A stretch of 63,610 bases of DNA from Candidatus Nanoarchaeia archaeon (GTDB taxonomy: Archaea; Nanobdellota; Nanobdellia; SCGC-AAA011-G17; GW2011-AR18). The translations under genes and the position numbers were made by a program. The notes beneath the pieces are model-generated. The model was not told the DNA's origin, made no database searches, and saw nothing but the letters and a program-made list of their open reading frames with translations. The first letter of the stretch is position 1; each line of letters opens with the position of its first letter. The stretch is from contig DATDWR010000007.1 of assembly GCA_035289605.1 (NCBI GenBank), forward strand, positions 1-63,610, in the 5' to 3' direction. This document shows, in pieces, positions 5,340-10,383 of the stretch.

Positions 5340-7706
5340 ATGAATAATTACGACTTCAAAGAATCGGAGAAAAAATGGCTGAATTTCTGGCAAAAAGAAA
5401 AAATTTATTCATTTGATCCAAAATCTAAGAACAAGATCTACTCAATAGACACGCCGCCACCAACAGTTTCTGGAAAAATGCATATAGGACATGCCTTCAG
5501 CTATTCGCAACAAGACTTCATTGCAAGATACCACAGAATGAAAAGAGAAAGCATATTCTACCCTTTCGGGACTGATGATAACGGACTGCCGACAGAAAGA
5601 CTGGTAGAAAAAATGAAAAGCGTCAAAGGCTCCAGCATCGATAGAACGGAATTCATTAATTTATGCTTAAAAACATTAGAAGAAATAAGGCCTGTCTTCA
5701 TTCAAGACTGGAAAAATATAGGAATGTCATGCGATTTCGATCTTTTTTATTCTACAATAGACTCCCATTCAAGAAAAGTTTCACAAAAATCATTTTTAGA
5801 CCTGCACAAAATCAACAGACTTTACAGAAAAGAAGGGCCTACAATATGGTGCACTGAATGCAGAACAGCAATAGCTCAAGTCGAAATGAAAGATGAGGAA
5901 AAAATTACTAATTTTGTTTATATAGAAGTAAAGACAGAAAACGGAAAATCTTTAGTCTTTGCGACAACAAGACCAGAACTTTATCCTTCTTGTGTCGGAA
6001 TATCTGTCAATCCAAATGATCAAAGATACAAAGACTGCATAGGAAAAAAAGTTATTATGCCGTTAACAGGAGCTAAAATAGAAATAACTACTGATGAAAT
6101 GATAGACCCTGAATTTGGCACTGGAGTAGTTTATTTTTGCAGCAGCGGCGATGCACAATTTCTAGAATGGGAGAAAAGACACCCTATAAAGAATAAGATC
6201 TATATTTTGAATAAAGACGGCACGATGAATGAAAAAGCCGGAAAATACGAAGGCCTCAGCATTAAAGGGACTAGGAAAAAAATTATTGAAGACCTTCAGA
6301 ACCTCGGCGTTGTTAAAAAAGTAGAACCCTTGAAGCACATTATCAATGTCCATGAAAGATGCAATACTGATATAGAATACATGGTATCTAAACAATGGTT
6401 TGTAAAGTATCTAGACTTGAAAGACAAGTTCTTGAAAGCAGGAAAAAAACTAAAATGGCATCCAGAACATATGATTAACAGATATGAAAACTGGGTAAAC
6501 GGACTGCAGTGGGACTGGTGCATATCTAGACAAAGATTCTTCGGAGTTCCATTTCCAGTTTGGTACTGCGAAAAATGCGAAGAAGCAATATTAGCTGAAG
6601 AAAAGCAGTTGCCAGTAGACCCATTGAAAGACAAGCCATTAAAAAAATGCAAGTGCGGAAGCGACGAATTTATACCTGAAAAAGATATATTTGATACTTG
6701 GGCAACAAGCAGTTTAACGCCTCAAATAGCAGCTAGCCTACAACCCAAAGTCTATGATAAGTTATATCCGATGACACTAAGGCCACAAGCACATGATATA
6801 ATCTCATTTTGGCTATTTAATACATTGGTGAAAAGCCAGCTACATAACAATGTAAATCCATGGAAGGATGTTGCGATATCTGGCTGGGTGCTGGATCCAA
6901 AAGGCGAAAAAATGTCAAAGTCAAAAGGCAATGTTGTTGAACCACAAGCAGTATTAGAAAAATATGGCGCTGATGCCTTAAGATTCTGGGCAGCGAGCTC
7001 AAAACTAGGAGAAGATTTAGCATACCAAGAAAAGGAACTAGTTTCTGGACAAAGAACAATCACCAAATTAATCAATGCCTCAAGATTTGTATTCATGAAC
7101 CTAAATGACTACGACGGAAAAATACCTAAAAAACTTGAACTTATTGACAAATGGCTTCTATTAAAAATGAACAAACTAATTGAAGAGTGCACTGAAAGCT
7201 TTGAAAATTATGAATATTCTAAAGTAAAAAGTAGCACAGAGATATTCTTTTGGCACACATTCTGCGACAACTATTTGGAAATTATAAAAGATAGATTATA
7301 TAATCCTAAGAGGAGGGGAAAAGAGTCTAGAAGGAGCGCACAATATACTTTACATATTTGCTTATTGAATATAATAAAACTATTTGCACCCATAATGCCT
7401 TTTATAACAGAAGAATTATATCAAGAATATTATAGAAAAGATGAAAAAGAGAAGAGCGTGCACTTATTGTCATGGCCAAAGACTATTAAAAATATTGAAG
7501 ATAAGAAAGCAGAAGAATTAGGAGACAAAGCTATTGAAATAATAAGCCTTGTAAGAAAAGAAAAATCTAAACTGGGAAAATCAATGAAAGAAAAAATAAA
7601 GCTATTGCAATGCGACAATAATATGAAAGAAGTTGAAGCTGATCTCAAAGCTGTTACGCAAGCAGAGAAAATAGAATACGGAAAAGAAATAAAAATAGAA
7701 TTGTAG
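5340..7706 (+). CDS. valS: valyl-tRNA synthetase (archaeal type)
   Basis: DTPPPTVSGKMHIGH, DWCISRQRFFG, KMSKSKGN. Confidence 0.97.
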   Translation: MNNYDFKESEKKWLNFWQKEKIYSFDPKSKNKIYSIDTPPPTVSGKMHIGHAFSYSQQDFIARYHRMKRESIFYPFGTDDNGLPTERLVEKMKSVKGSSIDRTEFINLCLKTLEEIRPVFIQDWKNIGMSCDFDLFYSTIDSHSRKVSQKSFLDLHKINRLYRKEGPTIWCTECRTAIAQVEMKDEEKITNFVYIEVKTENGKSLVFATTRPELYPSCVGISVNPNDQRYKDCIGKKVIMPLTGAKIEITTDEMIDPEFGTGVVYFCSSGDAQFLEWEKRHPIKNKIYILNKDGTMNEKAGKYEGLSIKGTRKKIIEDLQNLGVVKKVEPLKHIINVHERCNTDIEYMVSKQWFVKYLDLKDKFLKAGKKLKWHPEHMINRYENWVNGLQWDWCISRQRFFGVPFPVWYCEKCEEAILAEEKQLPVDPLKDKPLKKCKCGSDEFIPEKDIFDTWATSSLTPQIAASLQPKVYDKLYPMTLRPQAHDIISFWLFNTLVKSQLHNNVNPWKDVAISGWVLDPKGEKMSKSKGNVVEPQAVLEKYGADALRFWAASSKLGEDLAYQEKELVSGQRTITKLINASRFVFMNLNDYDGKIPKKLELIDKWLLLKMNKLIEECTESFENYEYSKVKSSTEIFFWHTFCDNYLEIIKDRLYNPKRRGKESRRSAQYTLHICLLNIIKLFAPIMPFITEELYQEYYRKDEKEKSVHLLSWPKTIKNIEDKKAEELGDKAIEIISLVRKEKSKLGKSMKEKIKLLQCDNNMKEVEADLKAVTQAEKIEYGKEIKIEL

Positions 7707-7744: not shown

Positions 7745-8845
7745 ATGTTAGACACAAAACAACAATACAAACTGAGAAAATTTGTCAACGAATTAAAGCA
7801 AATCAGAGGAAGGCACACTGAGCTAGTTACAGTCTATATTCCATCAGGATATGACATCAATAAAATAATACAACACCTAATGCAAGAACAAGGAACTGCT
7901 TCCAACATAAAAGACAAAACAACAAGACAGCATGTGATTGATTCTTTAGAAAGAATGGTAAGACACCTTAGATTATTCAAACAAACACCTAATAACGGAC
8001 TAGCGGCATTCGCTGGTAACATAGCAAGCCAAGAAGGAAAGACAGACATAAAAATTTGGAGCCTAGAACCTCCAGTACCTATAAACATCAGAATGTACAG
8101 ATGCGACCAGACATTTGTCCTAGACGAGCTAGAAAACATGATGATGGTCAAGGACACATTCGGCATTGTTGTTCTAGACAATAGGGAAGCTACAATAGGC
8201 TTGATAAAAGGCAAAAGTGTACAAGTAATAAAGCAATTAGGATCAAATGTTCCAGGAAAACTTAAAGTTGGAGGCTTTAGCCAAGCTCGTTATGCAAGGC
8301 TGAGAGAGGAAGCAGCAAATGAATTCTACAAACGAATAGCAGAAATAATTAATACAGAATTCTTATCTTTGGGAAAAGACTTGAGAGGAATACTGATTGG
8401 AGGGCCTGGACCAACAAAAGAACATTTCCTGAATGGAGACTACGTGAATAATGAATTAAAGAAAAAGGTAATTGCAGTAAGAGATGTTGCTTATACAGAT
8501 GAATCAGGACTGCATGAATTACTAGAGAAAAGCCATGATGCTTTAGCACAGGAAGAAATCATAAAAGAAAAAAAACTAGTGCAAGAACTAATGGAAATGC
8601 TTGCAAAAAACTCTGAAAAAGTGGCTTATGGATTTAATGACGTCAAGAAGGCGCTTGAATATGGGGCTGTAGAGAAACTACTCATATCTGAAGATTTCAA
8701 CAGAATAGATGAACTAGAAGAACTGGCAAGCAAGACAGGAGCAACATTCTTTTTAGTAAGTACAGAAACAAAAGAAGGAATGCAACTAAAAGAACTGGGT
8801 GGTGTTGCTGCGTTACTCAGATATGCTTTAGATAACTTTGATTAA
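7745..8845 (+). CDS. prf1: peptide chain release factor aRF1 with atypical GGFSQ catalytic loop
   Basis: TELVTVYIP, TASNIKD, YRCDQTF, GGPGPTK, LGGVAALLRY; the GGQ position reads GGF-S-Q (8270-8284). Confidence 0.92.
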   Translation: MLDTKQQYKLRKFVNELKQIRGRHTELVTVYIPSGYDINKIIQHLMQEQGTASNIKDKTTRQHVIDSLERMVRHLRLFKQTPNNGLAAFAGNIASQEGKTDIKIWSLEPPVPINIRMYRCDQTFVLDELENMMMVKDTFGIVVLDNREATIGLIKGKSVQVIKQLGSNVPGKLKVGGFSQARYARLREEAANEFYKRIAEIINTEFLSLGKDLRGILIGGPGPTKEHFLNGDYVNNELKKKVIAVRDVAYTDESGLHELLEKSHDALAQEEIIKEKKLVQELMEMLAKNSEKVAYGFNDVKKALEYGAVEKLLISEDFNRIDELEELASKTGATFFLVSTETKEGMQLKELGGVAALLRYALDNFD

Positions 8846-8979: not shown

Positions 8980-9279
8980 ATGGCTGAAAGCGTATCTGTA
9001 AGAATAGGCGGAGAAGACTTATTAGAAATAGAAAACATATCTAAAGTAGAAAATAAAAGCAAATCCAATGTTTTAAGAGACATATTAGATATAGGAATAA
9101 AAGAAAAAAAACTAGAAATAGCAATTAAAAAATTTGTAAATAACGAGATTACAATAACTAAAGCAGCAGAAACAGCAAATCTTCCTCTAACAACATTTAT
9201 GGATATACTTTCTGAAAGAAAAATAAGCTTTCATTACACAATAAAAGAACTGGAAGAGGAATTTGAGGACTTAATTTGA
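8980..9279 (+). CDS. UPF0175 family antitoxin (RHH-like N-terminus)
   Basis: SVSVRI beta strand; EITITKAAETANL...FMDIL; overlaps the downstream PIN gene. Confidence 0.8.
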   Translation: MAESVSVRIGGEDLLEIENISKVENKSKSNVLRDILDIGIKEKKLEIAIKKFVNNEITITKAAETANLPLTTFMDILSERKISFHYTIKELEEEFEDLI

Positions 9280-9800
9280 TATCAAATGCATCACCACTAA
9301 TAATATTAGCAAAAACAGACTTGATGAAAGAATTCTTAGAATTATACTCAACTATAGAGATAAGTCCTGAAGTTTGTAATGAAGCAATAAACAAAGGCTT
9401 GGAAGCAGGGAAACAAGATGCACAAATTCTTGATGCACTATTAAAGGAAGAAAAAATAAAAATTGTTAAATTAAACCAAGAATATGGAAAAACATCTAAA
9501 AAAATCGTTGAAAATTACAAACTAGACAAAGGAGAAGCAGAAACAATATCATTAGCTTTACAATTAAAAAATAAAGAAATATTAATGGACGAAGCAATGG
9601 GCAGAAAAATAGCGAAATTTTTAAATTTAAAACCAAAAGGAACATTAAAGATATTATTAGAACTTTACAATAAAAAAATCATAAGTGAAGAACAGTTAAG
9701 AAAGAAAGTAAACGAAGTCATAGGAGTGCAATTTAGGCTGGATGCTGAAGTTCTAAACAAATTCTGGGAATTATTTGAAAAAATGAAGACTAAAAAATGA
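9276..9800 (+). CDS. PIN-domain toxin (DUF3368-like)
   Basis: ISNASPLI, LDKGEAETISLA, LMDE..GR, GTL motifs. Confidence 0.82.
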   Translation: MISNASPLIILAKTDLMKEFLELYSTIEISPEVCNEAINKGLEAGKQDAQILDALLKEEKIKIVKLNQEYGKTSKKIVENYKLDKGEAETISLALQLKNKEILMDEAMGRKIAKFLNLKPKGTLKILLELYNKKIISEEQLRKKVNEVIGVQFRLDAEVLNKFWELFEKMKTKK

Positions 9801-9843: not shown

Positions 9844-10383
9844 ATGCAAGAAGATAAAAACAAAGTAGAAACAATACTTTTCACAACCGGAAGATTCATA
9901 GGACTTGAAGAGTTAGGAAGACTAGCAGGAATAGGTAGTCTAGGGTATTTGAAAGAAGTTATAGACGAGCTGAAAAAAGGGTATGAAACAAAGAATGGCT
10001 CACTACAAATAACAGAACAAGGAAGTAAATACAAACTTGCAATAAAAAAGGAATACTTACACTTGACTGAAAGTCTGCTAACAGACAGCGAGATGGACAA
10101 GCCGACACAAGAAACTTTGGCAGTAATAGCATACAAGAATCCTGCATTTCAAAGCGAAATCATAAAAATTAGAGGAAACAAAGCATATGACCACATAAAA
10201 ATGCTGAAAGAACTAGATTTTGTAACAAGCACACCAAGCGGAAGAACAAATATACTAAAGCTTACAAACAAATTCTATGACTATTTTGACATTGTAGAAG
10301 ACCAGCTTAAAAGCAAACTAGAAAGCGTGGAAAAAAGAGAAGAAAACAAGCAAGAGGCTTCTCCAAATGAAACTCAAAACTGA
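9844..10383 (+). CDS. scpB: SMC-Scp complex subunit ScpB
   Basis: VETILF, ETLAVIAYKNP, QSEIIKIRG, LTNKFYDYF. Confidence 0.92.
   Translation: MQEDKNKVETILFTTGRFIGLEELGRLAGIGSLGYLKEVIDELKKGYETKNGSLQITEQGSKYKLAIKKEYLHLTESLLTDSEMDKPTQETLAVIAYKNPAFQSEIIKIRGNKAYDHIKMLKELDFVTSTPSGRTNILKLTNKFYDYFDIVEDQLKSKLESVEKREENKQEASPNETQN

Follow-up and report, generated by a model that had tools for sequence, protein, structure and literature searches.

An archaeal aRF1 with GGFSQ in place of GGQ is a recurrent and apparently undescribed variant of the class I release factor

Class I release factors have been described as universally carrying a GGQ motif (PMC2613156, PMC5799190, PMC6144793). The main-chain amide of its Gln is described as crucial for release (PMC3467058), the side chain is assigned a packing and water-orienting role that is improved by N5-methylation (PMC5799190), and a title cited in PMC2613156 states that human eRF1 stays active despite mutation of this Gln. 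In Haloferax the GGQ Gln of aRF1 is methylated by aMtq2, orthologues of which are stated to occur in all archaea (PMC6144793); the human enzyme HEMK2 has G-Q-X3-R as its target preference (PMC10804810). Section 2.2 of PMC6514570 gives GGQ for classical aeRF-1 and GGxSQ for aVLRF-1 and acVLRF-1 (VLRF1 clade; PF18859); as described there, aVLRF-1 has an N-terminal coiled coil and no C-terminal domain, and acVLRF-1 has no N domain. Other eRF1-fold factors also depart from a strict GGQ. Pelota/Dom34 and Balon have eRF1-like M and C domains without GGQ, with unconstrained loops and no decoding motifs. Vms1/ANKZF1, in which the Gln is displaced, act on split 60S and have no stop-codon domain; they are reported to remove the CCA end of the tRNA and to need a Gln outside a strict GGQ (PMC7026593, bioRxiv 10.1101/2025.09.04.673968).

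The window, that is the whole stretch of 63,610 nucleotides analysed here, comes from a Woesearchaeota-type genome (G000; 839 kb, 22 contigs, 86% complete) whose named relatives, at 64-86% identity, are Woesearchaeota/Nanoarchaeia. The features used below are as follows.

5340..7706, + strand: valS, conserved upstream neighbour and synteny marker, adjoining aRF1
7745..8845, + strand: aRF1 gene, encoding 366 aa with N, M and C domains, from TIGR03676, Pfam eRF1_1/2/3 and structure-model matches
7895..7915, + strand: TASNIKD, NIKS-type stop-codon motif (residues 51-57), from translation and conservation in relatives
8096..8116, + strand: YRCDQTF, YxCxxxF stop-codon motif (residues 118-124), from translation and conservation in relatives
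8270..8284, + strand: catalytic loop GGFSQ, F178 at the position of the GGQ Gln and Q180 two residues on, from translation and alignment to solved aRF1s
8276..8281, + strand: F178/S179 junction, without insertion here and the intein site in relatives (GGx / C...HN / S)
8288..8293, + strand: R182-Y183, of which Tyr183 covaries with the non-Gln state
9844..10383, + strand: scpB, conserved downstream neighbour and synteny marker, from a domain/profile match and the shared locus

A sequence-only reading of this DNA had reported GGFSQ in an aRF1 next to valS, together with an intact stop-recognition N domain. Translation of 7745-8845 bears this out: GGA GGC TTT AGC CAA encodes G176-G177-F178-S179-Q180, valS lies directly upstream, and both decoding motifs are present and conserved in relatives. 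Replacement of the Ser of NIKS by Asp is recorded as natural (PMC2613156). The protein scores 431.5 bits against the aRF1 equivalog TIGR03676 (cut-off 234.7) and matches Pfam eRF1_1, eRF1_2 and eRF1_3, which together with the motifs agrees with its proposed identity as a canonical, presumably codon-reading aRF1 lacking GGQ. VLRF1-type models score far lower (acVLRF1 40.6, baeRF10 39.4 and NF041024 36 bits, the last against a cut-off of 125). The loop does fit the GGxSQ of aVLRF-1/acVLRF-1, as had been noticed, but the protein has N, M and C domains, and its weak matches to PF18859 (40.6 bits) and to baeRF-1 family 10 (PF18854, 39.4 bits) are not diagnostic because GGQ relatives carry both. Identity as Pelota/Dom34 was rejected: there is no Sm-like N domain, the decoding motifs are present and TIGR00111 gives 120 bits, below its cut-off of 177.65.

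That the sequence reads GGFSQ and not GGQ is confirmed, and the base-call error already thought unlikely is ruled out. Contigs spanning the loop in four of four sequencing runs from three studies (X5, X6, X8, X9), none flagged as a possible source of the assembly, show no differing letter, and GGFSQ is retained in three congeneric genomes (80-86% identity), in which the codons of the loop differ synonymously (TTT/TTC, AGC/TCA). The protein shares three domains, NIKx, YxCxxxF, loop length, fold, GG, S+1, R+4 and a single copy at a conserved locus with classical aRF1/eRF1 (TIGR03676; 4af1, 3agk, 5lzu). It differs in having Phe at residue 3 of GGQ (Trp, Tyr or Met in relatives) and no G-Q methylation site. 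Against solved aRF1s the loop aligns without indels, with F178 opposite the Gln of GGQ. The best structural matches of the AlphaFold2 model are aRF1 4af1 (Foldseek E 5.5e-39) and ribosome-bound eRF1. In this model an M-domain helix begins at residue 178, so that F178-Q180 form the helix start with Q180 in the first turn; the loop is of low confidence (mean pLDDT 63 for residues 171-180).

Among 29 loci compared, both loop types included, valS adjoins aRF1 in 27 and scpB stands beside it in 14. As the valS-aRF1-scpB locus is common to GGQ relatives, the GGFSQ aRF1 is an orthologue at the ancestral locus, and very probably neither a paralogue nor a VLRF1 chimera; given the absence of GGQ it is classed as an aRF1 variant orthologous by descent and not as a typical member. 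The two origins entertained in the sequence-only reading, a VLRF1 chimera or a specialised second copy, are not supported. The M domain scores 142 bits with eRF1_2 against 40.6 with acVLRF1, and the nearest relatives are GGQ aRF1s, among which the protein is nested at 60-70% identity in trees built without VLRF-1 sequences. Searches with tblastn, phmmer and a motif scan found no second aRF1, canonical GGQ copy or VLRF1 in the 86%-complete host assembly. Of the first 61 genomes searched, 15 are non-Gln, and each of these gave one aRF1, whole or as two intein-split halves; G482 and G502 likewise gave one each. No second copy was found in these 17 non-Gln genomes, several of which are 95-100% complete, and family search confirmed a single aRF1 in G032 (97% complete, 2 contigs), G031 and G007. 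The gene very probably encodes the working, sole release factor of the cell. Between aRF1 and scpB, at 8980-9800, lies a UPF0175 and DUF3368 (PIN-like) pair, probably a toxin-antitoxin module; comparison with 44 other loci, over flanks of 1.5-3 kb, did not turn it up again.

The non-Gln state recurs in other lineages far more than chance would allow. In the order, 157 genomes at least 85% complete yielded 143 loop calls, 131 GGQ and 12 GGF/GGW, the latter in three families; six extra rows from two-match genomes were set aside as chance. Less complete genomes add G002, G020, G024 and G502 (GGF/GGW) and G482 (GGY). Among 150 distant representatives 142 were readable and 25 of these were non-Gln; around one of the representatives 113 of 118 new homologues carry GGW, those with names being mostly Aenigmarchaeota. 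A metagenome scan returned two short contigs with GGWSAN. A loose loop pattern applied to 401 class genomes gave mostly chance hits among the 150 of 170 matches listed, and the 10 genomes behind the remaining matches proved to be nine GGQ and one unreadable. Two candidate non-Gln aRF1s, in G272 and G418, were false on follow-up, as was the loop match at G009:C32. A strict pattern applied to 131 phylum genomes returned the host and five rows in which the matched letters give no aRF1 loop; no non-Gln aRF1 outside this order was confirmed among the class genomes searched.

Trees place the non-Gln loops at many points. With loop columns removed, a FastTree tree of 306 exteins (from 334 candidates, the others having no readable motif or an unsuitable length) needs 16 changes of state. 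In an IQ-TREE tree of 78 selected rows 8 changes are needed, at least seven of them forced by well-supported branches, and a single origin appears in no bootstrap tree. When the 14 genome rows with a non-Gln loop are constrained to a single clade, that arrangement is rejected by an AU test (p=0.006; quick tree of 73 rows, LG+G4, no mixture). Five GGQ loops are nested within the W clade, which suggests reversion, while the count itself does not polarise the direction of the changes. No description of GGxSQ as a common aRF1 variant, of a non-GGQ canonical aRF1 or of an intein at this site of aRF1 was found in the literature, which was searched by title, abstract start and term counts and in which subscription papers mostly lay outside the search, so that prior notice is possible; the supplement of PMC6514570 has no match for GGWSQ, GGFSQ, Aenigmarchaeota, Woesearchaeota, GW2011_AR18 or intein. 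This is a real, recurrent and apparently undescribed variant of the class I release factor.

Loop residues covary with the loss of Gln. In a set of 424 exteins, which is enriched around two queries and partly redundant, 187 are non-Gln and have at residue 3 W (153), F (27), M (5), A (1) or S (1), with one Y seen elsewhere; no Leu, Arg or Lys intermediate was seen among the non-Gln loops. Gln at +2 is found in 156 of the 187 non-Gln loops against 84 of 237 GGQ loops, and in 19/21 against 19/103 when 50%-identity representatives are counted. Of the 31 non-Gln loops without this Gln, 29 have Ala-Asn instead (29/187 overall); among GGQ loops that can be compared, 5 of 153 carry Asn at +3. A nearby amide is therefore almost obligatory (185/187) and a glutamine is not. 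Thirty GGWSA[N/S] proteins (mean identity 71%) have a near-invariant loop without Gln and intact decoding motifs; they occur at several places in the tree and one, P0381, lacks any amide. Tyr183 is present in 86% of XSQ loops and 87% of WSA loops, against 41/237 GGQ loops. N, I and K of the stop-codon motif are 98-100% conserved in Gln and non-Gln relatives alike, and Y, C and F of YxCxxxF are 100% conserved in the non-Gln groups.

The GGQ methyltransferase follows the same division. With a TIGR00537 match at E 1e-27 or better as the call, an aMtq2 orthologue is present in 124 of 131 GGQ genomes and intact in none of the 12 non-Gln genomes: it was not found in 10 of them, where the matches are longer enzymes lying outside the orthologue group, and in G032 and G059 it sits on a long branch with NPPY changed to NAPY. 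The 21 proteins of this kind that were aligned (19 from GGQ genomes, two from genomes lacking a loop call) share NPPY and fall together in a single compact group. The best aMtq2-type match in the host scores 84 bits, against 178-279 for orthologues, and no orthologue was found there. Pth2, taken as a completeness control, is present in 11 of the 12 non-Gln genomes and in 145/157 across the order. On this distribution, non-Gln lineages appear to have lost the GGQ methyltransferase. The 12 genomes represent three independent lineages, so that three of three pairs agree (sign test p=0.25); in two further lineages, represented by G482 and G502 (78% and 71% complete), aMtq2 was likewise not found.

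Matches to TIGR00537 in G000, G008, G016 and G019 were rejected as aMtq2, as they belong to a separate group of longer methyltransferases; these may substitute for it. One such HemK-like protein (INPPY/INLPY), outside the aMtq2 group, is common to G000 (C14:67773-68477), G008 and G019, and was not found in other non-Gln genomes at E 1e-20. Loss of Pelota was considered as a correlate and discarded: none of the 12 non-Gln genomes has it, but its absence is not specific to them because only 58 of 157 genomes in the order do. In families f13, f15, f20, f28 and f7 Pelota was found in none or one of the genomes, and Pth2 was not found in any of the six f13 genomes.

The sequence and its recurrence, the single orthologous copy, the covarying residues and the accompanying absence of the methyltransferase are observed; beyond them, a mechanism may be proposed in which the catalytic loop has taken up an alternative state that was attained repeatedly, GG-[F/W/Y/M]-S-(Q-x or A-N)-R-Y. 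The loop would enter the peptidyl-transferase centre in the normal register, and the main-chain NH of F178 would play the part that the Gln NH has in GGQ. In place of N5-methyl-Gln, the aromatic side chain could pack against A2451/C2452/U2506, while Q180, or Asn at +3, would restore the lost hydrogen bond or prop the loop. Left without a G-Q substrate, aMtq2 might become dispensable and be lost or drift. The A2451/C2452 cleft can accommodate aromatic side chains. The mechanism gains support from residue 3, which, when not Gln, is almost always bulky and hydrophobic. The near-obligate amide implies that an aromatic swap alone is insufficient, and fits a catalytic Gln or Asn equally well. Counted against the mechanism are the low-confidence loop in a model built without the ribosome, the chemistry being deduced from sequence and model, and, for the methyltransferase, the three lineages only, the diverged orthologue in G032/G059, the 7 of 131 GGQ genomes that also lack it and the NPPY orthologue of G481, which is congeneric with G482 and in which no aRF1 was found. 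Taken whole, normal register, backbone catalysis, aromatic stand-in, supporting amide and loss of an idle aMtq2 make up the account that we lean towards slightly. Somewhat more tentatively, whole archaeal lineages may end all translation with a Gln-free GGWSAN loop, an aromatic replacing N5-methyl-Gln, GGQ and its methyltransferase having been discarded repeatedly and reversibly.

An aromatic swap at a supposedly universal Gln affects several groups of tiny symbiotic archaea. Natural, presumably sole-copy factors with Phe, Trp, Tyr or Met, some of them with Gln-free loops, separate the backbone from the side-chain contribution to release, and the natural series GGQSA, GGQSQ, GGFSQ, GGWSQ and GGWSAN makes the role of the Gln side chain and of its methylation directly testable. 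These reduced genomes may also hold a case in which a substitution has taken the place of a post-translational modification, and the VLRF1 clade could have acquired its GGxSQ loops along such a path.

The serious rival is the shifted catalytic Gln put forward in the sequence-only reading. Here a change of register would bring Q180 (or Asn at +3) to where the Gln of GGQ lies, a scheme already proposed for aVLRF-1/acVLRF-1, with GGQSQ as the hand-over intermediate. The strong covariation of Gln at +2 agrees with this, as does the GGxSQ motif given for those families (PMC6514570). SQ is found in 17 of 18 non-Gln clades, several of which have GGQSQ sisters (for example 10/10 for G032/G059), yet about half of the clades have sisters without SQ. 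Moreover, the loop is not lengthened, and the model has Q180 within the first turn of the helix. The GGWSAN loops without any Gln argue against a simple shift, and the Gln-free GGWSA[N/S] proteins at several tree positions, with P0381 lacking any amide, weaken the claim further. The covariation stands, and a shifted Gln as its explanation is rather unlikely, though worth serious attention.

A different origin, compatible with either chemistry, is that an intein drove or spread the change, either because the altered site evades its homing endonuclease or because the flanking codons were co-converted. In relatives an intein lies between residues 178 and 179 of aRF1 (C...HN, Ser +1), exactly at GGx/S and abutting the changed codon. 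These inteins span about 124-573 aa, include mini-inteins and LAGLIDADG/HTH forms, many with LAGLIDADG domains, and also occur in many other aRF1s. Within the W clade, GGQSA reversions switch residues 178, 180 and 183 together, in keeping with such an origin. However, a Cys-type codon at the junction is found in 58 of 143 loops (~40%), split 5/12 non-Gln and 53/131 GGQ (counted by eye), and at this similar frequency any immunity conferred by the variant is not visible. On the intein tree the non-Gln alleles lie dispersed and need 11 changes, and 17 of the 33 inteins of non-Gln alleles exceed 250 aa. We regard an intein-driven origin as improbable. A second insertion site appears to lie near YxCxxxF in P0112, P0121 and P0128, where the match resumes at query residue 116-117; the P0112 insertion matches a Pfam intein. 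The aRF1 M domain was not found in G006, G018, G021, G004 and G013, although G006 is rated 98% complete, probably through assembly breaks at the intein.

Action like that of Vms1/ANKZF1, in which the stop codon would be read and the tRNA's 3'-CCA end then cleaved instead of the ester, is very improbable. The loop resembles VLRF1 motifs, those enzymes need a displaced Gln and Pth2 could serve as a clean-up factor, but Pth2 is as common in GGQ genomes, loop length and all flanks are aRF1-like with no sign of the Vms1/ANKZF1 features, reversion to GGQ is seen inside clades, and each termination would cost one damaged tRNA. The reading that this is an inactive or specialised copy or a VLRF1 chimera, with a true GGQ aRF1 missing from the assemblies, could appeal to the incomplete host genome and to the five family members without an M-domain match as a sign that genes drop out, but is largely refuted by the single copies in near-complete genomes, the ancestral locus, the intact decoding motifs and the 142 synonymous against 52 non-synonymous codon differences from the nearest congener, none of the latter in the loop.

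Several minor observations concern related genes and the host genome. A plasmid search for a VLRF1 outgroup gave only haloarchaeal aRF1-like matches; such a gene is present on 15 haloarchaeal plasmid records and is annotated prf1 in 13 of them. Atlas eRF1_2 clusters (ranks 2, 3 and 16) are short stand-alone eRF1 domain-2 proteins with few taxon records, mostly tailed phages. In the 23S PTC segment, examined as a candidate correlate of the loop state, '2504' is C in six of six family-f1 non-Gln genomes with a pattern match and not in G032/G059; it is also C in the GGQ genomes G040 and G112, and in G004. Other variants in the order are 'G2499/A2500' in f7 and f20 and U at '2503' in many f4/f11 genomes, and insertions in the PTC region of several 23S genes are probably introns. 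ARAGORN, with intron detection off, reports two tRNA genes in the host genome, whose long frames use all three stop codons (TAA 245, TGA 79, TAG 62).
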